Shown here: positions 350-35,018 of the stretch, in pieces
Numbering within the stretch: the stretch's first letter is position 1
Layout: every line of letters starts with the position of its first letter
DNA from: Paramecium tetraurelia
Taxonomy: Eukaryota
DNA: 35,018 nucleotides
Reading direction: 5' to 3'
Assembly (NCBI GenBank): GCA_000165425.1
Contig: CT868050.1
Span: 186,001 to 221,018, forward strand
The notes under the pieces: model-generated
Seen by the model: only the letters and a program-made list of their open reading frames with translations
Told to the model about the DNA's origin: nothing
Databases searched by the model: none
Made by a program: the position numbers and the translations under genes

Positions 350-3020
350 TCATTATTTTAATAATATCAATTCCTTAATTTACTTTACAATGCCTTAAAC
401 TGCCAGACCATGCTCTTCCTGCTCTATCAATTGCTATAGAATGGAATTCTTAAACATGTCTTTAATTTTTATCGAGTCGGACTCTAATAGATAATATAGT
501 ATCTGTAACAAATGTTTGAGGTTCAACTGACTTTAATCCTTCTGAATCAAGAGTTCCAATAGTTATTTCCTAAACAATAGACTAAGTCCAAATTCTTTTG
601 GTAATACTTTAACTAGTGTTGGGTACATGGGAACAGTGTTATTTTTAAAATAAGCCACAAGAATGTCAATGTTTTTGCTTAGAGGGATGCGTTGAGTTTA
701 ATCTAATTCTATTAATTTAACAATTGTATCAAGTAACTTTGTGATATTTAGATTTGTTGTTAATAATCCAACATAAATGCTAATACCTCCATTTTCTTGT
801 AATTTTTATTTGCATCTTTCAGAAGATGTAGCTAATGAGCATAATATGCTAATAGCTGCCTTTTTCATAGAGATTTGGTTTTCTTATTCACTTGGCAATT
901 TAAATAATTCTAGCAATAAAGGAACGCCTTCATAAAGACACAATTCTTCTTATTTATCATGATTCAATTTGGTAAGATAAAATATAATTCTTAGAATATC
1001 TGCAATCATCGGCCCTTAACTTGGTAAGTCCTTCTTTAACAGGGTTAAGGCTCTAGGGATGATAGCGAATCCATCTAAATGTGGTTAAAGATTGGGTTCA
1101 GTGGAGAGATATCTAAATATTTTTATTGTTTTTAGAAGTGCTTATTCCTAATTTTAATTAAGGAAAGTGGCCAATCTGGTAATAACTTCTTTTTCGCAAA
1201 GGGATTGTTTAACTATTTTGTCGTCGCACTTTGCTAAGATCACTAAAATATTCAATGATTTGATCATTAAATTAACATCTATATTTTGAATTTGTTCAGC
1301 AATAAGCACTAGTCTATAAGTGATGAATTTGCTAGTTAAGAGTCTACTAAGATTTCTTTAACTTATAGTATTAAGATCGTATAGTAATATGATAGTGTCT
1401 AATGCTAAACCAATTAAGTCAATGTTATCAGAGATGTCTGATGTGTCAATTAATTCTAGGAGGTTATCCAATCCTCCAATTGAGAGAAGGTATCCTTCTT
1501 TGAAGTAGGTTAACTATCCCAAAAAATAGGCAGCTTCAACTCTTAGTTCTTTATGAAATTCAGATGAAGTGATTTATTGATAAAAGTTAGCTGCTCCCAA
1601 ATAACATGACAATTCTAATAATTAAGGATTCTAATCAACAACAATATTTATTAATTCAAATATCAATTTTAAAATTTATAAAGATTAGGATTAATCTTAT
1701 GAATTATTTTCACAATATAGTGGCATATATTTCTCAATAATTTCCAATAATGATGTTAAACCAGTATGAATGAAATATTCTTTACATTTATCATTGGGAA
1801 TAGTATCTTTTAACTATTCTAAAATTTTAATAATCTAAGAATTATCACTTTGTTCTGTTAATTAAGTGATTAGTTCATTAATTTCTCTCATACTTTTGCC
1901 ATCTTCATTCTAGCCCCAAAATCCATTTTACTTAATTTGATGACTGGTTCTTAATTTAAGCTATCTTAGTGAATCCAATTAAGAATCTCTCACAGCACTG
2001 CTTTTATCTATTTTTCTAGGTGATTAACATTGAACTAATTATGGTACTTACTCAATGAATGAGTCTGTAATAAATGTTCCGAAATTGGATTGATCTACAA
2101 TGTGATTTCTTATAGTATTTGTTACTTCTTCAGGTAGATTGGGGCCTTGAACTATATGCCAACTTTTAGTGATCCATGGATGTTTGAGCATAGTAGTGGC
2201 ATCATCCCTTAAAGTGGGATCCTTTTGGAAACATTGGATTAGAAAGTCTCTGCATTCGTTAGAGATTCCTTCAGGCAAGGGAGGACAATCTCTTTGGACT
2301 ATTTAAAACATTGCAGCATATTATAATCTATCGAAATAGGGTGGATTGCCTGTCAATAACTCTATGACTGTGCATCCAAGTGACCAGATATCACAGGATG
2401 TAGATAGATGTCCTGACATTTCTATTACTTCAGGTGCCATCCAATATGGAGTACCAACTATGTTATTACTTTGTGTCGTATCTTCAGATAAAGTTGTGGC
2501 CACTCCAAAGTCTGCCAATTTAACAGTACTTGATTATCTTATGATTAAAATTACCCATCTTTGGGAGTCAAAATATTGGCACCCTTTATGTCTCTATGGA
2601 CAATTCCTTATTAATGCAAATACTCCAAGCCTTTCAATACTTGTTTAACATAAATGGCTACCAAAGACTCTGGAAATGATCCAAACTTCTTTAGAATGCT
2701 TGCCAAACTGCCACTTTCGATGTATTCAAGAATGATATTTAAAAATTGATCAGTCTCTATACAATCGATGTATTTGACAATATTTTCATGTTTCAACTTC
2801 TTCAATAGATAGATTTCTTGTTGTAATGCTTTATACTGATCTTCTTTCAGTGTGGCTCTTGACACTTGCTTTATTGCCACAAGTGTTCCCTCTATTATTG
2901 TGTGTTTATTACTAATTCCAAATTCAATCCTTTGTACACAGTACCAATCGAACCTCTACCTAGCAAATCGCCTAGCTAGTAATTACCGATCTTCTTCATC
3001 TATCTAGACAATTGAGACAT
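350..3020 (-). CDS. STE-group Ser/Thr kinase, Cdc15/Cdc7(SIN)/MAP3K-epsilon-like, with N-terminal kinase domain and C-terminal helical (ARM-like) region
   Basis: [49 protein letters not shown] and GTPYWMAPE motifs. Short introns near 2891-2912 and 2529-2554. A long Leu-rich helical C-terminus ends ...[16 protein letters not shown] (TGA at 352-350). Confidence 0.9.
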
Positions 3021-3203
3021 TTAATATTATTTAATATATATATATATATAGAAGTGATTGTAAAGAAGCGTGCAGATACAAGATGCATGTAAGCTATCTT
3101 ATATTGAATAATGCCATTACATTAATGTGGCAAACGTAAAAAGGGGCACAAATATTGTAGATTGTGTGTCCAGAGTGTTATTTGCCATTTATTAATTTAA
3201 TTA

Positions 3204-3639: not shown

Positions 3640-6387
3640 ATGCAGCCACAATAATTCTTGGATTTGGTTTAATGTGCATTCTTCGAGAGCAATACACAAA
3701 GAAGTTAGGCAGAATAAGTACTACTCAAGTACAAGGATGAATGTCCTGATGAATTCATGGTCTATTGTGCCTAAGCATTCTCTAATCGCGGCATTTAGAA
3801 TCGCATTAGAATAGCTTGCAGTACTTTGGTAAAACGACTAGTGGGATTGATTGTAATAGTCAACTTCTATTGTAGCATCCTCCATCTAATTAAATTACTT
3901 GGTTGGCCTGTTCTTAACAAACTAAGAATGATGTGAAAATGAAGTTCATGGAATAGTTGATTGACCCTGAAAATGAAATTAGAAGATCTGCAGCCAATGT
4001 GAGTCTATCAAACTATCTATTAGACTATAAGTGAAATATGTGCCATAGAATTACCAAGACAAGAATGGCCAGATCTAATTGAACGATTGACAACAAACTC
4101 AAAGCACACTGATATCTTGATTAAGGTGTCAGCCATCATGACATTAGGTTACATTTGCGAAGCATTAGTACGAATCCTAATATCATTTAGAAAACTCATC
4201 AATCTTCAGGTATCTCTAAGAAAGACTCGGAAGTCATATTAATGGGAATTTGTGTAGGAATGGATTTGAATGAGTAGACTTTAGAAATTAGATTGACTGC
4301 AATAAAAGCCTTACAGGATTCATTATATTTTATGAACAACTTGTTTAAATAATAAGTATTTGCACTCACATTTAATTTAGGAAATCTTTTCTTTCGTGAA
4401 GAATTTGATATTGTCCAATGCTGTATGCAACATTCAGGAGATTAAACACAAAGCACTTTAATGTTTGATTGATTTTGTTAAGCAACTCTTCACATATTTA
4501 CCTGTCTACATAAATGAATTATTTTAAGCAACTTAGGCTTCATTTGAAAATCAAGGAGAAATTTCAATAGCAGCAATTGAAATCTGGAATACTATTTGTG
4601 CAGAAATGAAAGAAGAAATCATGTAGAATGGCAATCAATCGACACCTGAAAGTAATGCAGTAGATTGTTGTGTATAATTTTTTAAGAACAATTATGAAGG
4701 ATTCTTACTGCCATTCATGAGAAACCTCTTATTGGATTGTGGAGATGTGGATGATGAATATCAAGGATTGTCAGTCCCTGATTCATCTTGCAAAGGATTA
4801 GCATTTATAATTGATTTTGCTGGAGTCAAAACCTACGAATTAGTCAAAAACTTCATTTAAAACACTCTCTCACACTAGCAATGGGAATACAGAAAAGCCA
4901 GCGTTATGGCATTTGGTGCTTTGGCTGAAGTTCAAACCAAAGAAATAGAAATGCTCATTAAATCTGCTCTGAGTAATCTCTTCTCTTGTTTGGTTGATCA
5001 GAATTTCAAAGTCAAGAAGGCCACAGCTCAAACCTTGAGTAGAGTGGCTGAAAATTACCCATAATGCTTCCATGAACATGATTAAGCTAACCACATGTTG
5101 GCAACCTTATTGGATTAATTGAATAACAAAATACCGATTGTTTAACATCTGATATGGGTCTTTGTTTACCTCACAGAACAACTACAACTCTTTTCCATGA
5201 GTATATTTAACAGAGAGAAATTTAACATATTGTAACATTTGGCAAGCACATCAGTAAGAGCAGATATCAAGAATTCAGAAATAGCAATAATTGACACAGC
5301 TTTCATGGCTATTCTCAATATTATCTATAGTATCACTGATACAAAATCATGCAATGATTACTTGATTGAATTCTTTTAATAAATCTAACGATTAGAGAGT
5401 GGTACATAAGTACCTGTTGAAATTAAATTTCATTTAGAGATGGGATTGATGAGTGCCATGCATGGTTGTGTAGTGAGATTGGATGACTCAACAACTCCAG
5501 AATCTGTATTTGAATCAATCATGAAAACTCTATCAAATGTAGACTCGAGAGTTAAGAATGACTATTTTTATGTACTCTCAGGAATAGCATATGCTTTTAA
5601 AAAGAAATTATCCAAATATTCGTCTTAATTAATAGCGGAACTAAATAAACCCCTTTCTGAACCAGATGACATGGAGAGCTTTAAGACAGCATTGTTCTGT
5701 TTAGCAGATATTGCAAGAGCTATGGAAGAAGAGTTTGTGCCTTATATGAAGATTTTAAATTATTTCTTTGGCTTGATTTAGGTATAAAAAGTATACTAAC
5801 AATTAGAATCCCAATTTTAATAGAGAATTAAAATTATAAGTGTATAATGCCATTGCAGACATAATTTTAGGATTGAAGGATAAGTCTTTCCAATTTTTAG
5901 GTGATCTGAAAGAGATTCTCAAACTAGGATTTGCTGCGAGTATGGATTTGACTAAGAGTTAATAGAATGTGGATTAAGATTATGCAGAGAGATTAAAAGA
6001 GACGATGACTTCATTCTATACTTGTATTTTACACGCTTATTGTGAACCTAATGTGCCTAACTTTGATTTGAGAGACACAGTAGATTGGTTCATAATATTT
6101 TGTACTGATATGTGCAATCTAAAACTAAAACCCACAATTGTATAGACATATAAATTAAATGATAGGAATATGTTAGATTGACTTTGTGTTGTATATTTGA
6201 TTGTTCGCATTTCTTTTAGACAGTGCCAGAGATGAAAATAAAGTTGAAAGACTTCATTACAAGTGATTTTGTGATTGAATTGATCAGGAAGATGAGTCAA
6301 TACAATGACAAAGATTATCAGGAATGTGTTTCATTTGCCAAATAGTTACTAAATGACGTTTATGGATTTTAATTGAAATTGTATTGA
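3640..6387 (+). CDS. Importin beta (karyopherin beta-1-like) HEAT-repeat protein
   Basis: IBN_N-like start (RSQAEQVL), ICAIELPRQEWPDLI, AIMTLGYICE, AAIEIWNTICAE and WEYRKASVMAFGALAE match importin-beta motifs. Several ~22-27 nt introns (e.g. ~3853-3874, ~4356-4380, ~5782-5806). TGA at 6385-6387. Confidence 0.9.
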
Positions 6388-6908: not shown

Positions 6909-7888
6909 TCATTGCTTCTTTGAATTTGGAAAATACCATTCCTTACCAGGTGTGTAACCCAAAGTAGAATACAACTCTTTGCGTGTTTACATACTATAAA
7001 TCACTATATTTAATAATTTTACTTTTCAACTGAATTAACCTAAGACTCATCCTTCTTCAATTACTTCAAAAATCCATCAATAGCTTTACTGGCAATTCTT
7101 AATGTGGAAACAGGATAGATAACACAATTATAACCCATCTACTCAAATTCTTTTAATGAAATGTACGGAGTCTTTCCAAATTCTGTCATGTTAGCCAATA
7201 AGTAAATGTTTGGATTCTTCGACTTCAATTCCTTTGCCACAACAGCCATTTCTTCTTTTGTGTGTAATCCTTCAGGGAATATCATATCAGCTCCTGCATC
7301 CATATATGCCTTGCTTCTTTTGATACATTCATCCAATCCATGTGTTCCTCTAGCATCAGTACGTGCTATATTGGGGTTAAATCGATGCTTTACCACAAAT
7401 GACAAACTCTCCTCCACTGCATTAGATACTTGCATTTTTGGCTATTTAGATCTTCTTCTCCATAACATCAGATGGAACCAATTCCTTTCCATCCAAATGT
7501 CCACAACGTTTTGGGAACACCTAATCCTCAATATGAAGACCTGAAGCTCCATGTATGAAATATTCCCATACTGTTTTAGAACACATTTCTCCTTCTCCGA
7601 ATCCTGTGTCTGCATCTGCCAGAATCGGTAATCCTGAAGCTAGAGCCACATCCTTGATTGTCTTACAGAATCCATCCAAAGTTACCATACTTAAATACTA
7701 ATAACTAAATTGTACCCAATATCTGGAACTCCACTGGATGCAGTCACAGCAGCACCTGAAATGTACAGGGCCTCAAAACCATTATCTGCACATTGTCTAC
7801 CAGCCATACCATTGTATGCTCCTGGCATCATTAGACATTTCTAAGCTAATAGCTTTCTAAACAATGAGCAATTTTATTTAAATAACAT
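6909..7888 (-). CDS. prpB: 2-methylisocitrate lyase (PrpB-like; isocitrate lyase/PEP mutase family)
   Basis: PGAYN, YISGAA...GVPDIG, DADTGFG, HIEDQVFPKRCGHLDGK, ARTDA, AGADMIFPE and NMTEFGKTP motifs. Introns near ~7690-7715, 7366-7393 and ~6995-7022. Confidence 0.88.
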
Positions 7889-8028
7889 AATAATTTATTA
7901 TTCCAAATGAATTACCACTTATAAATTATAAAATATAATAAATTCTTCTTTAATTTTATATTAATCAATAACTTCTCCCCTAATAACATAATCTATATAA
8001 CGCTTTTTATTAATATTTAATTAACTTA

Positions 8029-8292
8029 ATGGGCTGTTCTGAATCTGTTCCCTTTAAATCATCTCTCACACAAAAATCACAATCAACCATAGATACACCC
8101 TCAACACTTGCTAAATATGTCGTTCCTCTCTCCTCATCTGCCTCCTTTGATAATTTTGACACTTACGAACTCGATGATTAAACCACATCCCATTATTATG
8201 ATGAAATTCAACAGAAAGTCATCACCATACCAAAATTACATTCCATAGATAAATCGATCATTTTTTAAAGAAGAAAGATGCTCAGCTTTTGA
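8029..8292 (+). CDS. Small hypothetical protein (87 aa), putatively N-acylated (MGCS)
   Basis: MGCSESVPFKSSLTQ...IPKLHSIDKSIIFQRRKMLSF*, open in code 6. Confidence 0.7.
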
Positions 8293-13999: not shown

Positions 14000-16400
14000 C
14001 AGAATAATCATCAAGTTATAAAAAAATTATTATCATTCATAAATTTTTTAATTCACTATCAATTAAGATATTAATCCAAGTTTCATCTTTATTTTAATAA
14101 TAAGTCCTCATAATATGTTTAGATTTATAATGCTTTGAGGAATCCAATTTCATTATCCTATAAAATACTCTTTTCCTTTAGAATTTAAACTAAATGAAAC
14201 CATTTTCTGTGTTATATGTGGTTGAAAAAATCTATAAGTAGAATATCTGAATTATTCTTTTTATCCATTGAGTTTATTGGTCTGATTAAAGATAATATTT
14301 TAAGTTGTATTCCTCCCTTTTTAACAAATCCATTTTATTTATTTGAGACGTTTTCAATTAGAAATTAATCTATTTTATCATTAAGTCTAAACTCTGTAAA
14401 TTTATATAATGCACTAAATATAATAATAGGTCTCAATTGAGTATATTTGGAATTAATCTTGCTTCAAAAGTTTATTGTTAATATCCAAAGTACTTTGAAA
14501 TCATAAATTTTGAAACAATTGACATTTCCTGCATTTTCTTATTGCTCTATAAGAGATTTCATCCACTTTTATAACGTATCCATTCGACATGAGTTTTTAT
14601 AATTCTCAAACTGATATAATATTTAACTTTGGTAGCCTTGGTACCATAATTATATTATATGGAATCCTTTGAGATATGATATCCATCTATCTATAACATT
14701 GTCAAAGTACTAATCTTCCACTTATTAGATCATCATTCTGATTCAAGCAAAATTTCATTATTCCTCCTTCTTTTGAATTTGGATTTATTATTCTAATTTA
14801 TTTTAGCATTCTGTAGACCTATTTTTTATCTTTGCTTTCGAAATTTTAGGCTAAATATTGCATCATATCTCCTATAGTCTATTTCTTATATTTATTACTG
14901 GTATCCTTATTCTTTTTAAGTTATGACTCTTTTTTCCTTTAATTAATCTTAATATATTTATAAAAGTTTGTAAAATTATTCATCTTACTTTCCTCCTCTC
15001 TATAAAGTTCATATACTTTATTTATATCAGATTAAATTATATATTCTTTGTGATTATTAGTTTATTTAATATCAACTGTTAAAATTATTTTTGCATGATC
15101 AGATGTGTCTCTATGTAAGAGCTTATATGATTAACCAAATCTTGGAAATATATTTGTAGTTCATCAGTTTATAATTATTGTCATCTTTTCTTCTAAATAT
15201 TATATCATGGTCTTTAAGGACTTATAGAAAATTGTTAATACTGCCTTTCTATTATTGAAGTCACCACAAATAACAATTATCTAATTTCCTTTTAAGTTTA
15301 ATACATTGATATTTAGAGGTTATGTTATTAGAACAAAAACATTTAAATATTCCAAACACAACTCCTCCTGTCTTTATGTTTTTCCATAGTATTAATAATA
15401 TGTATAATTTGGACTATCATTTCATTTTCTTCCTTCTTGTTTCTTATAAACAAACAATGTGGCATTCTTCTTTCGTTATTTATTATTAAGTTTCATCTTT
15501 CATAGCACTTACATTCCAACTTAATATTTTTATTGTATGTTTAGTATGAATGCGGTTCCCATCAAATTTCATTTCATTCTCAATGTTTTAGGGACGGTAA
15601 ATTTGCCCCAGAATGTCGTGAGTACAACCCTGGCTCACTCATACTTATTCATCATTCCATCTATTAAAATATTACCTCTTTTATTAATATTCTTGATAAA
15701 TATTAAGATTATTATTATTTCTAATAAAAGGTCGATTTCCTTAGTTTTGCCTATTAGGATTTTGGTAGTTCTTTAAGGTCTCTATTATTAGTGATAATTC
15801 TGTTTATATTTATTCCTTTTGGCACTGACTCTTTTAATTGTTATCTCTTTGGATGATTTCTATATTTATTTAAAAAATTTGAAAAAAATTTTTTCATAGC
15901 AATTCATTCTGTATGAGCGNNNNNNNNNNNNNNNNNNNNNNNNNNNNNNNNNNNNNNNNNNNNNNNNNNNNNNNNNNNNNNNNNNNNNNNNNNNNNNNNN
16001 NNNNNNNNNNNNNNNNNNNNNNNNNNNNNNNNNNNNNNNNNNNNNNNNNNNNNNNNNNNNNNNNNNNNNGACCTAGAACATTCAAAGATATTCTTTCTTT
16101 TTATATGTCCATAAATTTATCTAGGTTAATTATATTTCTTGTCTGTTCAAGTGTAATTCTTGTGTAATTATTGGTATTATTTCACTTCTTCTTTCAATTT
16201 CGCTTCAATTTATTGATCTGGCTCGGCAACATGACTGCTATTTTCTTATTCTTCTTCTTCATCCTGAATTTCTCTTATTATTATACCTATGTTTTCATAT
16301 ATGTCTTATATTTCCTCTATTTTTTTCTCAGCCAGTTAATATTTCTCAATTTATTGTATTTATCAAACAATGAATATTATGAAGGGAACGTTATAAATGA
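14000..16400 (-). mobile_element. Decayed non-LTR retrotransposon (LINE-like): APE endonuclease plus reverse transcriptase, with upstream coiled-coil ORF1-like remnants; spans the N gap
   Basis: Minus-strand motifs in order. APE: IKILSWNV (~15530), HIVCLQETR (~15445), GGV, IIVICGDFN (~15265), TSDH (~15100). RT: FEARLIP, LRPIII (~14425), QNGF (~14335), LLIDF (~14235), degenerate IPQS (~14140). Many frameshifts and TGA stops; boundaries are approximate. Confidence 0.8.
15920..16069. other. Assembly gap (150 N)
   Basis: Run of n. Confidence 0.99.
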
Positions 16401-17147
16401 TTAAATGTAATTCTTAATTTTCATAAAGCGTACTCTGAATATGACAAATTTTCGAAAAAGGACCAAATTCAACAACAAATAATTTCTAATATGTATTTAA
16501 GTCTCCTCATAATTTTTCATGAAGTAATCAAAATTTATGTCAAATCAACCTGAGGAGAACTAATAAATGAGCGATAAATGAGATACAAGAGAATAGATTT
16601 TAGTTGAAGTAGATGATGTAGCTTAGGATTGCATATATATGGGATTTTAATTTCACTCCAAAGGTTGATGCATCTACTATATCTCAACATCGTCATGATC
16701 TCAATAATGGAATACCCAAGAATTTTAATTATAAAAGAAGATTCAATAAAATCTTCTATTTGCTTTAGTTGTAAATGTATAAAATCCTCACTACTTTATT
16801 TATTTACTTAAAATTTATAAATGCCAATTAATTTGATTATAATGTACTTTTCATTATAAGAATTCTACTATTTAAATAAATACAGAGTCTATGCTTTTAA
16901 AATGCAGTTGTTATAATGAATAACTAAATATTAGATTTATTGGAGTGTCATTTTTCAACTAGTGAATAATATTTTATATGGAATCAGTTCTAATTTAGTA
17001 TTTTAACTTTGTAGAATTGGTTATTTAAAAATAAAAATTTAAGGCTTCCTATTTGCATTTAATCATGTCCTCAGATAGTTTATTTATCATTTTTCATTAT
17101 TATTAAAATAACAAGATTATATAAATTAATTTATAATATATATTATA

Positions 17148-19736
17148 ATGCTTGAATATTTTAATAAATGGAAGAAGATAGATGACCTTCCTCCAATTGC
17201 TGATGAAATTAATTTCCAAGAAAATCAAAATATTTAACTATGTCAATAAAATATGAATCAAGTAATTAAGTAATAAGGCTAGGAGGAAAACGAAAATAAT
17301 TTAATATTTCTTGATCTAAAGGAGTTTGGAATTTAGGAATTACAAACAGAAGTCATAGAAATGTCTTAAATCATTGAAGAGTTCATGCAAAGGATATTCT
17401 AAAAATATTTGACATCTATAGATACCAATAATATTTATATGATAAATGAGGGAGGACTATTGGATAAAAAACACTAACTTAATTTTTATCATATTAAAAA
17501 CAATTCAATCATTAAATTCATAAAAATGAAATAGACCTATCCTGAAAAATGGATTATCATTATTAAAACTTTGACTGGAAAAACCTTAACGTTAGAAATA
17601 AATAATAAAGATATGTCTATTGAATAGTTGAAGATGTTAATACAAAATAGAGAAGGTATACCACCCGATTAATAAAGATTGATATTTGAAGGGATACTCT
17701 TATAAGATGGAAAAATGCTATGGGAATATAACATAGGACCTGAAAGTACTCTGTATCTAACCTTACGTTTAAGAGGTGGTTGTTTTCCTGGAAATGCTCC
17801 AATAAAACTTTTTAATGGAAGAACAAAAATAATAAAAGAGATTGAATTAGGTGATATTGTTATGTGTTATGATTTTGAATAAAAATAGTTTAAGTCGTCA
17901 ATAGTAGTTTTTAAGAAAATATCATCAGAAAAATAATAATTAATAGAAATTATAAGTGAGAATGGAAGTATTATTTGTACTCCTAATCATCCTATTTATA
18001 CTTAAACAGGATGGAAAGCGTTAGAACCACATCCAAATTTTTTTATTGAGAAATTAACTGTTACTGATCTTATATTTGATTCTAATGAAAGATTAGTAAA
18101 CATCCTCTAAATTAATTAACTAAAAGACACAGAAATTGTTTATAATATTACAACTTCATATCCAAATAACTTCATTGCTTTTGACTTCTTAGTACACAAT
18201 ATGAATAAAATATTCATTTAAATTAATGGGTTTAACGAAGAATTTGAAATACTACCTTATTTTTTAGTTTAAAATTTAAAAGTTATTATTGAAAAGAAAA
18301 AAGGAATACCTATGATTGATTAATAATTATATTATTAAGGAATACTAATGAAAGATCATTTTTCATTAGAAGATTATAAGCTATTACAAAATGGGACTGA
18401 ACCAGATCTGTTAATATTAAAAGTAATAAAATAATCTTAGAAATTGTAATATGAAATTAATTAGAATACAAATAGTGAAACATGTGTTTCAATAATAACA
18501 CATAATTCTTAATATCAATTATAAATTAAGAAGAATCAAAAAATAGGAAAGATAAAAAAAATATTAGAGTTTGTAGAATCTAGAGAATAAATAGAAAGAT
18601 CATTTATATTATGTAATGGAAAACCTTTACGGTCTAAAAATATAGACGAAAATAAAACAGATCTAGCAAATGTTTAAAGTATTTTCTTAATTGATTAACA
18701 ATCTGGAGGGATTTCTATGAGATTTACTTAAGAGATAAATGATCAGTAAGTTTAGACTGCATCTTAGCTAAAAGATTCTTTGTAGTGGTTAGGTAATCCA
18801 TAAATTAATGAATTTATTTAAGCAAATCTAGAAGAGATTAATGGGAATTAATAAAAAAAATATTATTATCAATAAATCCCCCTTCCCTGTATGATTGCAG
18901 TTAGATTATATACGTGTGACTTAATCTATAGAAAATTAAATAATGATTTAAGAACATCTGATTATAGAAGATGGAAGTAATACTTAAGATATTTAATGGA
19001 AGGTTTTCGACTTATGAAATATTATAAAGGAGTTGCATATCGTGGAATTAAAGATTATTAAAATACTACACTATATAAAAAGGGAAAGATTGTTTAATGG
19101 AGTGAAGTTACCAGTGTTTCATTAAATTATAAAATTGCATAACATTTCAGTAATAATAAAGGAATGATATTTAATATTTAACTAATAAGTGGCAAAGATA
19201 TATCCAAAATTTCAATTTATGAAGGAGAATAAGAATTAATAATGTATCCCTTTTCAACTTTTGTTGTTGATGAAGTTCAAATTAAACCAAATTAACCACA
19301 TATTGTAACAATGAGAGAATTACCTTTACCTAGATCGCATTGTGTGTTATTATGGGTCGATGACAATCCCGAAAACAATTTTAACTATGCTTACGAAGTA
19401 GAAAGATAAAACAACAATATTTCAGTTATATTTTGTACATCCACAAAAGATGCTATACTAATAATCTCAAAATATAACTGGATGATATATTTATCGGAAT
19501 CTTAATTTAGAGTTATTAGTGATATGGTAAGAATAGAAGATGGTAAACTGAATTATAATGCAGGGATAGAATTATTAATTCATTTATATTAAAAAATGAA
19601 ATACAAAAATAGAACTATCATATTTTGTGGAGATCAAAAGAGAGCTTAGGAAGAGTGCAGAAGTAGAAATATACAAGGAAATTTTGAAATTACTAATAAT
19701 GAACATGTTTTGAAATAGTTTCTTTAATTTAATTGA
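17148..19736 (+). CDS. BUBL-like polyprotein (862 aa): Ubl - ubiquitin-like(LRLRGG) - Hint/BIL - Ubl - Ubl(SGG) - ADP-ribosyltransferase (R-S-E) - receiver-like domain
   Basis: Single intronless frame in code 6 from ATG17148 (MLEYFNKWKK) to TGA19734-19736. Ub domain 17550-17780 (IKTLTGKT...EGIPPDQQRLIF...LRLRGG). Hint 17781-18200 (CFPGNAPI...CTPNHPIY...VYNI...FLVHN). ART motifs YRG 19038-19046, SVS 19113-19121 and EQE 19227-19235. Receiver-like LLWVDDNPENN from ~19347. Confidence 0.93.
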
Positions 19737-26255: not shown

Positions 26256-28554
26256 TCATAAAGGATGGAATTTCTATTAGATGTAGTAAGAGAAATATTG
26301 GGTTTTTATTATTTATTTGAAAATTTCATCCTCAGTTGAATTTAGTGTCTTCTCTTATATTTGATCTAGGTTGATTTCACCATCAACTTCCGGAATCAAA
26401 GAAAGTAAATTCACCTAAATGTAAGTTTTAGTATCCTCTAAGATTTTTAAACTCAAATTCAATGTTGCTTCATTGTTATCTGCTAAATAATGTCCTGGAA
26501 CACTTTATTGACGTATTGATTAATAAGTTTGGAATAAATTATAAAATAAGGTAGTGTACATCTTACTCTCTGTTAGATTCTTAGCTAAATTAAAAAATCT
26601 GAGTTTGTTAGCATCAAAAAACAATACTTGAGGTTGTTCATCAAAAAATGTTTCATCATCATCAATACCCAGATTACGTAATCCATTATCGTGATCTTTG
26701 ACAATCCCACAAATAATTGGAACTGGAGAATCAAGGATTGGCATTAATTAGGCAGTCAAAGCATGAATAGTAGGGTGTATATGTTAAAAGGGTTGAATCA
26801 TGTGTGGTAAAATCATTCTATTGAATATCTACTATATTTACAATAATGAACTTAGTAAAGTGCGGTTTTAACTAATTATGCAGATATTTTACTCCAACAT
26901 CATATTGATTAATAGTATTAAATAATGTGGTAATTCTATATGCGATAACGCATATGAGATTGCCCATTCGATTTCGTAATTTTGAACATTTGCACTATGA
27001 ATGAGTTATGATTTTATTGGAGTTTGTAAAAATTAATAATTGCATTCACTTATAAACTTGGAGTTCTGTAATTCTGTTAAAAAATTAAATAGTTCAGGTT
27101 TGAATGACTATTATTGTTATAGAATTAATTTTTACTGTATAGAATGAATTATCAATATTTCCTAGAGTATCCTCAAATTCTGAAACCATTGAATAGATTT
27201 CTGCTTTTTTGTATTTTAATGTGTCTAGGTGTAAACAGCATAATTACTTATTATAATTTTGATGACTTCGATGAAGAAATCAATAATTGGAGCTTTAGTG
27301 ATGAAACAATAGGTTTTGGAGAGTGAATAAAAGTATTTCTTTTGTAATTTTGAGTTATTGTTGGAAACATTGTAATCATAAAAGTCAGGAACATCAACAC
27401 AGACACAATATAATTAATGGTGAATATTAGTAATTGAGATTAGATCACTGATATTATCTGTATTAATTTAAGTAGCATTATTAATAATTTTATTGTTATT
27501 AAATGTTTATTCTGATTTCATAGTAATTACATATGCTCCTGCTAATCTATCATAACTTTAACCGCCCATCAGAATTCTAAAATATATGTTAGATAATGTA
27601 CGAATTCAAATTACTCATGGATAGAGTCTTCTCTTCTAATTTGACTTTTAATCCATATGGATGTATTTATTAAGGCAATAATATTAATTATTCCTTATAG
27701 CAAGATGTAGCAGATGAATGTTGAAATAATATCTCAGGTTTTAAGTTGACTTCCCTCTTTTCTAAAATATTACTAGTGAGCCCATTTAAAGTTTGTTTAG
27801 AGACACTAATAATGATAAATTCTTCAAATAATGAATATTATTATTGTTATTCCTATTACAATGATTATTTTTATGTTATTAATTATGATTCCATAGCAAT
27901 AGGTTCCTAAAATAACTGCTATGAACTAAAATTTGATTCCTCTCCTTTACATTATTCCAATTTCTTCTTAGAGTATTTCTGTATTATCTAATCAACTTTA
28001 GATGCATTATCATAATTGTATTCCTGCACTTAAATTTCTTAGACCACAACTTAATGTAATTCATCCTCACTATATTTTCTAAGTTCTACCACCTCAGGAC
28101 TGATGACTTCATCCTGTTCGTTATTACATTTCTTGGGACTCAAGTTATTCATATGCAAAGTTGTCTTCTTTGTCTCAAAGATTCTTTTCCCTAATTTTGA
28201 TATACATTCAGACTACTTTATGGTTAAATTGTTTAGGCCACCTTCTTATATCGATCTAATGACACCGCACTATAGAATTCATCTTATTTCAAAGCTAACT
28301 TTGATTTTTAATATGAAATACTTGCAATTCAAATCGCAATTATCCATTTTCTTTTTTCAACTAGTCTATTTATTAATCTTTGTCTTTTAATTGTATTTGG
28401 TAATGTGATATTTCACGAACCAAATCGTAATTCTTTTAAACCAATCTTTCCTACTTATTAGAGTGTTGCTTACATTTTTGTCTTCTAACAACTTAATCTG
28501 CATTTTGTACTCATCCATATCCAATATCTAAGACACATATTATTTCGATTTCAT
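26256..28554 (-). CDS. DENN-domain protein (Rab GEF family) with N-terminal coiled coil
   Basis: uDENN-like LFEEFIII...PYG and cDENN-like IMLEQNICIISQNRTLLS and PILDSPVPIICGI. Several short introns; TGA at 26258-26256. Confidence 0.82.
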
Positions 28555-30715: not shown

Positions 30716-33158
30716 TCAAATAAACAATAGTTTAAGATCTTAGGAGGTTGGTGGCTTTTACAGAATTTTATCGGCACCAGCGCTAAGGCAATTTTGTTGA
30801 GTCTTCATATCATTAAAAGCAGTCAACATATAGATTTTAGTAGTTGGACTTATCCGTTTGATTTCATTAATGCATTATAACCCATTCATTCCTGGCATAT
30901 TGAAATCTAAAAATACAACGTCATAACGCTGTTTCAAAACCATATCTATTGCTATTTGCCCTCCAAAAGCAGTATCTACCTTATAGATTCCTATTTTTGA
31001 TAACTATATTTTTAATAACATATTATTAAACGACTCATCATCTACGATTAAGACTTATAATTTTTCTTTTTTATTAATTTTTTTATGGAATGGAGCAAGT
31101 TGGTTTGTACTAATCATATTCTTATATGGAGAATGCACTGATACATCATAATCTATGGAATCGACACTAAACTAATCTTATTATTAGTGATGCTATTATT
31201 TATCATAATTTTTATAAATGACGAATTAAAAAGTTGAACCAACTCCAACTTATGATTCTAGATAAATGTACTACAAAGGTCCTATGTACCCACACAGCTA
31301 CTTGCAGATGATCAATCCCAAACCAACACCATTTCTAACTTTTTATACTAATACTCTACTTGTTTGTGTTGTTATCATCATCATAAGTGGCAAAGTTTCT
31401 GAAAAGCCGTCTTTAAATTTCTTGGGTGATTCCACTTCCGCTGTCATAAACTGTACATAGAATTAACCTTTATTGATTTCGAATTAGAGGATCAACATCA
31501 ACTACTGATTTATTAATATTAATTTAATCCTTAACATTAATGCAAAATTTGCAAATATCCATAGGTTCATCAGAAAAGATAATGGATATTTTTCCTTTTG
31601 ATGTGAATTTGATGGCATTTGATAGTAAATTAAAGAGGACTTACTTTATTCTCAATGGATCATTATTTAAAATTTAAGTAGATTTTAGTATAGAGACAAT
31701 CTCTAGCTGTAGGTTCTTCTTTTGTGTTTATATACGAAATACATTTTTTACATCTTGAATCAATTATAAAATATCAAACTCACTAATGGCTAGCTTTAAC
31801 TTCTATTATTTAATTTATGAGAAATCTTATAAATCATTAACAAAGGATTGTAGTATTTATACGTTTGTTTAGCACATCTCTAAATAGTTGCAACAAGATT
31901 GTATTTTCTCAAGTATTTCTGGGTTAGTTTTCATTTCAGACAATTCATATAAACTATCTTATACTAAAGTTATCATAGATTAAACAACACCTATTGGATT
32001 CTTCAAATCATGACTAACAGTAGCCAAAACACTGTCTTTATATTGATCTAGCTTTTCAAGCTAAGATATTTTGATTCTATCTGTTATTTCAATCAAAGAC
32101 ACTACAAAACTCTTTTAGTATTTCCAAATACATGGAGATACTAAAATATCATAAGTTTAATGATGATTATTATACATTAATCCCGTTAATTTTAACGGCA
32201 GACTTTCTTGAAGTTCTTTGTCTTAAGAGTTACTCATATATTAATAGAGAATGTAATTTAAAGACTAAGGATTGTCAATCATATTGATTTACTCTCCTGT
32301 TGCTTTTAAATTATTTAAAATGAGTTCTTGAGTTAAATTAACTTTTAAATTGCATAAAGAAATATTGGATTCATTACAATTGATAATCTAAATTTGATTA
32401 ATTTTTTAGTAAATGCTTTCAATAGTAGCAAACTCCTTGTTACAAGCCTAATTGACAAATAGGACTTCAAATTAATCTTGCATATTTTAATCTGAATTCA
32501 ACTTAATAACAAACAAGTTCTATTGTAGGCTATGGTTAAGCACTACCTCTTAATATGAAAGATCATGACTGAAATTAAATTTCTCAAAAAAACAGATCAA
32601 TTTCCTTCTCTCTCTCAAATAAATACTAATGGATATTGCAAGAATAAATATCCATTCAAAAGGTAATAGGATCCAATCAAAAATATTATCAAAATACAAA
32701 TAAGTAAATTACATTATTGTAAAGTAACATATTAGGTATTTCTTGTTGTTTAAACTTTGAGTAACATACATATAATATAATTACACATATCCGTTAATCA
32801 TGAATTAATCAACATACAAACTTAAATAGATCAAAATTGTTACAACATGAATGATTTTCCAATAATCATTACATGTTGAGTTCCTTTAAATACTCCATAT
32901 CTATAGCAGACTTGACAATGGAAAAACTATCAGGATTTATGATTCAACAGACTAATTGTCTTTAAATATTGCTGAAATAGTCAAAGCTAATTCCAAAAAC
33001 ATTTTAAAGGTTTCTATGAAAATCATTGGGCATTTATTTAACTTTTTCTGGAAAGTTTTAAAACTGTTCTGAACATCCTAATCTCGGAAGTTTAGAGTTG
33101 CATTCAAAAATGCATTTTCAGGTTAGAGATTTCTTGATATTTACAATAAATACTTCAT
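30716..33158 (-). CDS. Membrane hybrid histidine kinase (TM sensor - HisKA - HATPase_c - receiver)
   Basis: H-box LATVSHDLKNPI, N-box NLLSNAIKFT, G1 DSGSGI, G2 GVGLGLIICKQL and GVGSTF. Receiver motifs LIVDDESFN, VFLDFNMPGMNG and KPP. TGA at 30718-30716. Confidence 0.92.
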
Positions 33159-33516
33159 CTGAGAGTGATTATATATTACTTAATTATAAATTATTTTTAT
33201 TTCATGTAATACCATAACTTTGAAGATATATTTACGTAATGCTTATTTGTTCAATATTAATCAATTTGAACTCCAAAAAATTTATAAATTTCATCATCAT
33301 TTCTATCAAATAAAAATGTTTGCTCTTTTTTTTGCTTCACTATTTTGCAGCATATCTTAACTTATTCTGGATAACGCCAGAAAGAGTCGATAATTTGGAG
33401 ATTTGAATTTATCAGTTTAGAATTTTATAATGGGTAATCTTTTGAATCATATATTTTTTAATCAAATTATCTAAAACTTTGTAATAAGTTGATGATTATC
33501 GAAGCCTAATTTCAAA

Positions 33517-33608
33517 GGGGGTTGGGGTTTGGGTTTGGGGTTGGGGTTGGGGTTGGGGTTGGGTTTGGGTTTGGGTTTGGGTTTGGGGTTGGGTTTGGGG
33601 TTGGTTTC
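33517..33608 (+). repeat. Internal telomeric repeat tract (GGGGTT/GGGTTT mix)
   Basis: Direct reading; the G4T2/G3T3 mixture is characteristic of Paramecium macronuclear telomeres. Confidence 0.97.
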
Positions 33609-33758
33609 NNNNNNNNNNNNNNNNNNNNNNNNNNNNNNNNNNNNNNNNNNNNNNNNNNNNNNNNNNNNNNNNNNNNNNNNNNNNNNNNNNNNNNNNNNNN
33701 NNNNNNNNNNNNNNNNNNNNNNNNNNNNNNNNNNNNNNNNNNNNNNNNNNNNNNNNNN
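33609..33758. other. Assembly gap (150 N)
   Basis: Run of n. Confidence 0.99.
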
Positions 33759-34341
33759 AAAAGATTGCAAAACTTTCAGAAAAAAGGTGTATGGTTTATG
33801 ATTTGTGAAAAAAAAGCTAAAAATAAGGCAATATTTATAATAAAGGCGAGGATATCACAATATTTTTATTTAGAAACTCTAAACGCACAGAGGTGAAAAA
33901 ATTGGGCCGAACAATTTTAGAGAATACATATTTCACCTGTTCGTGACAGAAAGGATGAGTTTAAGGCTTATATAATTCTTCTCCACACCTGATCGTTATT
34001 GTAGTAAGCCCTTAATTCAAATAAAATAGCCTCATCATTTTCTGAAAAAAAGAGATCTATTTTGCAAAATAACCTCGTTCTATCTTCAACAATTAATTAG
34101 GTCTCTAATGTTGAGACAATGGCTCCTTTCTAATATAATTTCAGCAGACGTCATTTATTTTACATTAAATATCTCTAATAAAAATCCTTCTTAAATTCAA
34201 CATCGCCTCAACTTGACGTCCATTATCTTAGGCTTTAAGATTCTAATAAATAAGATGTTTAAGCCTAATTTTAACTCTTTAGATTTTAAGTCAATCTGTA
34301 AATATGAAAATAATAATAATAATTGATATGTAAATTATGCA

Positions 34342-34963: not shown

Positions 34964-35018
34964 GGGTTTGGGTTTGGGTTTGGGGTTGGGTTTGGGGTTG
35001 GGGTTGGGGTTTTGGGTT
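34964..35018 (+). repeat. Terminal telomeric repeat (GGGTTT/GGGGTT)
   Basis: G-rich strand runs 5'->3' to the end of the window. Confidence 0.98.

Follow-up and report, generated by a model that had tools for sequence, protein, structure and literature searches.

A Paramecium tetraurelia gene with the organization of the ciliate BUBL family sets a type A BIL directly behind a ubiquitin Gly-Gly terminus

We analysed a 35,018-nucleotide stretch of Paramecium tetraurelia DNA (contig CT868050.1, positions 186,001 to 221,018; hereafter the window, with positions counted from its first letter) and found on its plus strand a gene that is very probably a member of the ciliate BUBL family, its protein being predicted to process itself at both edges of a bacterial intein-like (BIL) domain. 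From N- to C-terminus, the protein consists of a ubiquitin-like (Ubl) domain, a ubiquitin ending in Gly-Gly (GG), a Hint/BIL domain, two further Ubl domains (Ubl2 and Ubl3, the latter again ending in GG), an Arg-type ADP-ribosyltransferase (ART) and a receiver-like domain, an order that follows from Pfam, profile–profile and structure-model results for the individual segments. Judged by alignment, the gene is the counterpart of the stretch of Tetrahymena BUBL1 that runs from ubl4 through BIL2 and ubl5 to the ART, and its Hint domain of 140 amino acids (aa) is a type A BIL set exactly where a polyubiquitin has its Gly76–Met1 bond. By analogy with Tetrahymena, we hold with moderate confidence that the whole chain of reactions, up to and including conjugation, is the physiological outcome.

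Ubiquitin is fused directly to a type A BIL

Under the ciliate code (table 6, TAA/TAG read as Gln), positions 17148–19736 of the plus strand form one open reading frame (ORF) of 862 aa, in which 58 TAA/TAG codons are translated as Gln and the TGA at 19734–19736 is the stop. The frame is readable under the ciliate code only; frames under the bacterial code (table 11) were short and spurious in this region and were dropped in its favour. The product is the P. tetraurelia protein XP_001434522.1 (GSPATT00036259001), with 856 of 862 residues identical, the sole mismatch being the six residues VIKQSQ encoded by nucleotides (nt) 18423–18440, and it carries the automatic UniProt name 'NAD(P)(+)--arginine ADP-ribosyltransferase'. 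The match is a macronuclear protein, the frame needs the ciliate code and telomere-type repeats lie in the window, all of which mark this as a nuclear gene of a ciliate, as a BUBL gene should be.

In this frame, the ubiquitin domain begins at Trp135 and its final LRLRGG (aa 206–211) abuts Cys212 (TGT), the Cys1 of the BIL. Block B follows as CTPNH (aa 277–281, nt 17976–17990), and the domain closes with VHN (aa 349–351, nt 18192–18200), straight after which Met352 (ATG, 18201–18203) begins the next Ubl. A sequence-only reading of this DNA had placed the ubiquitin start at 17550, the junction cysteine at 17781, and CTPNH and a VHN followed by Met at 18201 behind it, and every one of these positions proved exact in the ciliate-code frame. 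Its assignment of the domain to the A-type BILs also holds. The features given for this type in PMC4031507, namely Cys1, a block B of the form T-x-x-H, a terminal His-Asn and the absence of Cys/Ser/Thr at +1, are all present, on a Hint fold that contains no endonuclease insert. The marks of a canonical class 1 intein are missing, since the +1 residue is Met352 rather than Cys/Ser/Thr and the BIL lies between two complete Ubl domains instead of inside a conserved fold. What is found is the arrangement of a BUBL gene: Ubl–BIL–Ubl in a single ORF, with Gly-Gly abutting Cys1 and the next Ubl starting immediately after His-Asn.

Domain scans located the same boundaries. With the whole protein as query, the Pfam ubiquitin match (aa 137–209, E 5.7e-31) ended at the GG, while Hint (PF01079, aa 210–291, E 1.9e-9) and Vint (PF14623, E 6.7e-8), each scoring above its own cut-off, both began at the Cys. 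The Intein_splicing match extended to aa 351 (E 8e-5, under its cut-off), and PT-HINT (PF07591), the nearest Pfam model to the BIL type, reached E 0.047 and 14.4 bits, under its cut-off of 27.7 bits. The scan was repeated on the protein cut into pieces, and the pieces gave no Pfam match for aa 432–521 or the last 144 aa.

The junctions recur among relatives of the protein. Our alignment comprised 18 BILs flanked by ubiquitin, drawn from 13 proteins; P0126 (truncated), P0128 (N-terminal half garbled), P0213 (BIL split in the gene model), P0173 (a fragment) and P0160's second BIL, which is truncated, were left out. Cys1 and the terminal Asn were present in 18/18, the penultimate His in 17/18 and the block B His likewise in 17/18, the exception being P0203, which is without block B. 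On the donor side, Gly-1 was found in 16/18 and Gly-2 in 14/18; on the acceptor side, the +1 residue was Met (13), Ala (2), Ser (2), Lys (1) or Ile (1), with no instance of Cys or Thr. The four catalytic residues (Cys1, the His of block B and the terminal His-Asn) were intact in the window protein, in P0123, P0124, P0125 and P0129, and in the Tetrahymena and environmental homologues. Among Paramecium relatives, the GG/C junction was kept in all seven whose models cover it (P0123, P0124, P0125, P0126, P0129, P0203 and the identical P0065), and HN/M was kept in 6/6 that reach that junction; P0128 reads HN/L, and its gene model is garbled, and hence unreadable, at GG/C. The P. sonneborni proteins P0124 and P0125 still have the GG/C ending on an upstream Ubl that has diverged far from ubiquitin. 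The junction of ubiquitin and Hint is thus more than chance: the Pfam domains meet at GG/Cys, and both GG/C and HN/M are conserved in Paramecium relatives. Some Paramecium paralogues seem degraded, P0203 by its missing block B, P0126 by ending inside the BIL and P0128 by its garbled N-terminal half of the BIL.

Relatives of the BIL and its predicted fold

Among solved structures, the Hint domain matched BIL2 of the T. thermophila BUBL1 locus best (6Y75/6TMM; E 2.7e-11, residues 2–139). Next, at E 0.001–0.1, came a VWA-associated Hint, inteins and hedgehog, the hedgehog matches being weak (E 0.011–0.12). The T. thermophila SB210 'polyubiquitin' XP_001012667.2 (P0150), whose second BIL matches the 6Y75/6TMM chains at E 2e-83, is colinear with the window protein from its ubl4 (aa 391) to the C-terminus, with 34% identity over 748 aa (E 8e-122). 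For Ub–BIL–Ubl2 we built an AlphaFold2 model on a 12-row alignment; it had a mean predicted local distance difference test score (pLDDT) of 83.1 and a predicted template modelling (TM) score of 0.65. Its BIL is all-beta and was superposed on 6Y75 with a target-normalised TM score of 0.89–0.90 and a root-mean-square deviation of 1.7–1.9 Å at 30% identity; BIL2 and mini-inteins were its best single-domain structural matches.

Word searches with the Hint domain alone reached just 6–7 proteins, and it took an exhaustive HMMER search to bring in Tetrahymena; this returned 1512 proteins at E <= 1e-3, 134 of them at E <= 1e-10. Searching with aa 130–520 yielded mostly polyubiquitins (2515 matches among 8000 candidates), its one informative match being the P. 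tetraurelia protein. We re-scanned 154 Hint-bearing proteins, comprising the best 150 and the Paramecium homologues. Cys opened 261 of 262 BIL N-termini in this set and His-Asn closed 234 of 241 C-termini, with a +1 residue of Lys in 136 cases, Ser in 17, Met in 14, Cys in 13 and others in 61. Ubiquitin was also present in 16 of the 154; the named sources of ubiquitin–BIL proteins are P. pentaurelia, P. sonneborni, P. octaurelia, T. thermophila SB210, T. utriculariae and a EukProt entry for Nonionella stella. An ART domain was found in seven of the ten ubiquitin–BIL homologues scanned. Many of the best Hint matches (P0130, P0131, P0134, P0138, P0139 and others) are head-to-tail BIL arrays without ubiquitin, with linkers of 1–5 residues and junctions of the form HN/K(G)G/CF. 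The EukProt entry (P0136, labelled Nonionella stella, from a foraminifer transcriptome set) is a ubiquitin–BIL protein of three repeats with the junctions GA/C, KG/C and QG/C and Ser or Ala at +1; either the BUBL family extends past ciliates or the entry is contamination.

Ubiquitin-like, ADP-ribosyltransferase and receiver-like domains

The donor ubiquitin is preceded by a 134-aa leader that includes the degenerate N-terminal Ubl, whose family profile aligned with the ubiquitin profile in hhalign at a probability of 97.2% (E 2.8e-11). The donor itself shares 64% identity with canonical ubiquitin over 75 aa. Four of the ubiquitin lysines are substituted in it (K48 by Ile, K63 by Pro, K29 by Leu and K33 by Arg), and Arg42 is retained. 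Ubl2 was recognized both by Pfam (ubiquitin, aa 355–415, E 3.5e-10) and by hhalign against the ubiquitin profile (99.4%). Ubl3 is a probable assignment, made from an hhalign match of aa 454–521 to ubiquitin (probability 55.6%, E 1.2e-4) in which the C-termini of both are aligned. The second Gly-Gly with which it ends, ahead of the ART domain, is kept in 10/11 homologues. No Hint follows this G520-G521, which could be a processing site of the deubiquitinase type.

The ART assignment was made by PF01129, at E 1.2e-9 to 1.2e-10 and 38.3–41.6 bits against a cut-off of 22.3 bits. R632, S656-x-S658 and E694-Q-E696, which we take to be the catalytic motifs, are those of the R-S-E class. The last 144 aa were modelled by AlphaFold2 as a five-stranded alpha/beta domain with a mean pLDDT of 90.1. 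Among the best matches listed in a Foldseek search of the PDB, all were receiver domains or response-regulator/sensor proteins (best E 3.3e-4, TM score about 0.6); the Pfam Response_reg family gave no match to this segment at E up to 1. ESM Atlas feature matches for this segment all scored below 0.9 and served as a lead. The motif WVDDNP is invariant in 11/11 sequences of the domain; in the paralogue P0124, Asn replaces the Asp of 'SDMVR', the putative phospho-acceptor. Both Paramecium and Tetrahymena have kept this receiver-like domain behind the ART.

Sense transcription of the gene

In 3/3 oligo-dT RNA-seq runs, raw reads lay on the gene (45, 64 and 30 reads, counted over roughly one third to two fifths of every run). 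Within the gene region they were confined to bins 17102–19727, with the flanking bins empty, and for all raw reads the first mate was on the minus strand, the usual mark of plus-strand RNA. The gene is therefore transcribed, and in the sense direction. The public gene model treats the 18-nt GT...AG segment that encodes VIKQSQ as an intron. No raw RNA-seq read fell on 18112–18515, the stretch holding this segment, and one contig of run X2, whose status as RNA is a guess, keeps it unspliced.

Comparison with Tetrahymena BUBL1 and other Hint proteins

The BUBL hypothesis was reportedly put forward in 2004 by Dassa, Yanai and Pietrokovski, who are said to have named ciliates in general and possibly Paramecium among them, and Chiarini et al. 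reportedly tested it in 2021; the BUBL1 locus is also the subject of Chiarini et al. 2019. We know of no other natural system that charges a Ubl through a Hint thioester in place of E1/E2. Our literature searches found no text on the present Paramecium gene.

The authors of the BIL2 structure describe it in a section of the CASP14 target paper. In the T. thermophila polyubiquitin locus, BIL2 sits between ubl4 and ubl5 and forms Lys isopeptides independently of ATP, with ubl5 and a Ras GTPase as partners to which ubl4 is joined; zinc rotates the block B His69 of BIL2 into its catalytic pose, the ligands being H48 and H125 according to the text and H125 and H148 according to the figure legend (PMC8616854 section 2.4). 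PMC9200820 repeats this account. As in the Paramecium protein, Cys1 in the ubl4/BIL2/ubl5 segment of BUBL1 directly follows a ubiquitin RGG, the BIL is about 140 aa long and carries T-x-x-H and His-Asn, and a +1 Met opens a Ubl without GG. Beyond this Ubl lie a further segment ending in GG, an Arg-type ART and the C-terminal domain that Paramecium also has. The two proteins differ in three respects. First, Paramecium has one BIL and Tetrahymena BUBL1 two; Paramecium has no upstream BIL to free the N-terminus of the donor ubiquitin, which keeps the 134-aa leader. Second, the zinc ligands H48 and H125 of BIL2 correspond to Ser259 and Asn333 in Paramecium (BIL positions 48 and 122), and none of six Paramecium BILs aligned has His at either position. 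Third, the Paramecium donor lacks K48 and K63.

Bacterial type A BILs (Amitai et al. 2003, Dassa et al. 2004 in JBC and Aranko et al. 2013, as summarised in PMC4031507) share Cys1, block B, His-Asn, the absence of a +1 nucleophile and the absence of an endonuclease with the Paramecium domain. Their hosts, however, are secreted or toxin-like proteins, in whose variable regions they lie, often as tandem copies, whereas the Paramecium N-extein is ubiquitin, and a ubiquitin Gly-Gly in this place gives the BIL thioester a biological meaning. The C-terminal Hint of hedgehog also has the same fold, and in it too an outside nucleophile attacks a thioester formed at a Gly–Cys bond. In contrast, hedgehog lacks the C-terminal cleavage by Asn and uses cholesterol as its nucleophile, bound by an additional sterol-recognition region that is absent from the Paramecium BIL. 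A further system, the Legionella SidE family, attaches ubiquitin independently of E1 and E2 and carries an ADP-ribosyltransferase in the same polypeptide; its chemistry combines NAD-dependent ADP-ribosylation of ubiquitin Arg42 with a phosphodiesterase and involves no thioester. A phosphodiesterase domain was not found in the Pfam scan of the whole window protein, and we regard the resemblance as a lead, limited to what the ART domain may do.

Proposed reaction and the points that weigh against it

By homology, Cys212, aided by Thr278 and His281, would undergo an N-to-S acyl shift that loads aa 1–211, the leader and ubiquitin, as a thioester at Gly211. Asn351, aided by His350, would cyclise and free Met352 together with the Ubl2–Ubl3–ART–receiver fragment. 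Met at +1 would preclude a branched ester, and an amine would resolve the Gly211 thioester instead. A candidate is a lysine of Ubl2 or of another protein, which would give an isopeptide as with Tetrahymena BIL2. The alternative is the alpha-amine of Met352, which would yield a linear splice product by the type A BIL route, described in PMC4031507 as thioester formation, Asn cyclisation and attack of the freed amine on the thioester. Hydrolysis of the thioester would be a side reaction, and the net outcome would be Ubl conjugation without ATP, E1, E2 or E3. The sequence-only reading had likewise proposed a Ubl-Gly thioester discharged onto an amine without ATP; homology speaks for this proposal, the same chemistry having been reported for ubl4/BIL2/ubl5 (PMC8616854). 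As such, it restates a mechanism for which in-vitro proof with Tetrahymena BIL2 has already been published, and no new principle comes from this gene.

Several observations weigh against this course of events. The support for the chemistry of the Paramecium protein comes from homology, and the type A BILs described in PMC4031507 give mostly cleavage products ('cleavage products dominate'). In BIL2, zinc reportedly brings the block B His into its active pose; the ligand positions are not His in the aligned Paramecium BILs, so activation may be different or absent there. The donor would be a 211-aa leader-ubiquitin rather than a free 76-aa Ubl. On the acceptor side, we found no Ubl2 lysine conserved throughout, and the position of ubiquitin K48 in Ubl2 is Gln397, with Lys in four Paramecium relatives. 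Furthermore, the paralogues P0203 and P0128, the former without block B and the latter with a garbled model, look degraded.

A rival reading is a BIL that acts as a protease only, with hydrolysis at GG/C and Asn cyclisation at N/M releasing leader-ubiquitin and Ubl2–Ubl3–ART–receiver, much as a deubiquitinase acts on ordinary ubiquitin fusions, and with no conjugation in the cell. The dominance of cleavage products among type A BILs (PMC4031507), the missing zinc ligands, which in BIL2 are tied to the active splicing pose, the want of a Ubl2 lysine conserved throughout and a donor ubiquitin without K48 and K63 all argue for it. Nevertheless, the homologous Tetrahymena BIL2 yields isopeptide conjugates (PMC8616854). 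Moreover, a protease would have no need of an exact Gly-Gly, yet this is kept in P0124 and P0125, where the upstream Ubl has diverged, and the +1 Met and the directly adjoining Ubl are conserved as well. We consider cleavage without conjugation a possible outcome, though clearly the less likely one.

It is improbable that the gene is a decayed relic, in which an inert Hint would leave the protein to act uncut as a multi-domain ADP-ribosyltransferase. The degraded state of P0203 (without block B), P0126 (truncated) and P0128 (garbled) and the low transcript level fit such decay, but the four catalytic positions are intact in the window protein, in P0123, P0124, P0125 and P0129 and across the Tetrahymena and environmental homologues, and the model retains the BIL2 fold. 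Even though inteins too have the Hint fold, Cys1, T-x-x-H and His-Asn, we give hardly any credence to an ordinary selfish intein spliced without trace from a polyubiquitin gene, since the +1 residue is Met rather than Cys/Ser/Thr, the domain has 140 aa and no homing endonuclease, it lies between two independently folded Ubl domains and not within one fold, and it occupies the same site, accompanied by ART and receiver-like domains, in both Paramecium and Tetrahymena.

Within the BUBL assignment, a bolder idea, which we regard as a long shot, is that the BIL arms its own enzyme instead of dispensing ubiquitin: leader-ubiquitin would be ligated in cis onto its own Ubl2–Ubl3–ART–receiver fragment, an ART gated by the receiver would modify ubiquitin or Ubls (for example at Arg42), and G520-G521 would serve as a further processing or conjugation site. 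If true, two E1-independent ubiquitin chemistries would be combined in one polypeptide under phospho-relay control.

The value of the gene is comparative, in what the BUBL family keeps and loses across the distance between Paramecium and Tetrahymena. GG/Cys1, T-x-x-H, His-Asn/Met, the Ubl without GG, the GG-ended Ubl, the Arg-type ART and the receiver-like domain are kept; the upstream BIL, the zinc-binding histidines and donor K48/K63 are not. With Paramecium, moreover, the role of BUBL in vivo could be studied in a second ciliate amenable to genetics.

Feature coordinates and surroundings in the window

Table 1 Features of the BUBL gene and neighbouring genes, in window positions
Feature	Position	Strand	Basis
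Whole gene	17148..19736	+	862-aa ORF, ciliate code, stop TGA counted in
Degenerate N-terminal Ubl, about aa 63–125, without terminal Gly-Gly	17334..17522	+	Pfam ubiquitin E 0.0035 (under cut-off); hhalign
Ubiquitin domain, aa 135–211, ends LRLRGG, N-extein/donor	17550..17780	+	Pfam E 5.7e-31
Hint/type A BIL domain, 140 aa (aa 212–351)	17781..18200	+	Pfam Hint, Vint; 6Y75 homology
Cys212, BIL Cys1 nucleophile right after Gly211	17781..17783	+	Frame reading and alignment
Block B Thr278-Pro-Asn-His281 (T-x-x-H)	17979..17990	+	Position in frame
His350-Asn351/Met352 C-terminal splice junction, +1 non-nucleophilic	18195..18203	+	Frame reading and alignment
Ubl2, aa 352–425, counterpart of Tetrahymena ubl5, without terminal Gly-Gly	18201..18422	+	Pfam, hhalign, alignment with P0150 ubl5
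18-nt in-frame GT...AG segment (VIKQSQ)	18423..18440	+	Intron in public gene model
Third Ubl (probable), aa 454–521, ends G520-G521	18507..18710	+	hhalign; no Pfam match
NAD:arginine ADP-ribosyltransferase, aa 582–718	18891..19301	+	Pfam PF01129 above cut-off
Receiver-like (CheY fold) domain	19302..19733	+	AlphaFold2 model and Foldseek
Protein kinase split over two ORFs	350..3117	-	Pfam
Importin-beta-like HEAT protein	4606..5904	+	Pfam
PEP-mutase-family enzyme	7001..8062	-	Pfam
DENN-domain protein	26256..27569	-	Pfam

Upstream of the BUBL gene, a run of N (an assembly gap) occupies about 15919–16071 in an AT-rich intergenic stretch. On the minus strand at 30716–33215, two adjacent ORFs with HisKA and HATPase_c, then Response_reg, probably belong to a single gene for a hybrid histidine kinase, interrupted by a small intron or a frame break. 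Telomere-type G4T2/G3T3 repeats lie at the 3′ end of the window (34966–35018) and internally at 33520–33608, the latter directly adjoining another run of N at 33609–33768, which suggests a macronuclear chromosome end together with an internal telomere-addition site or scaffold join.

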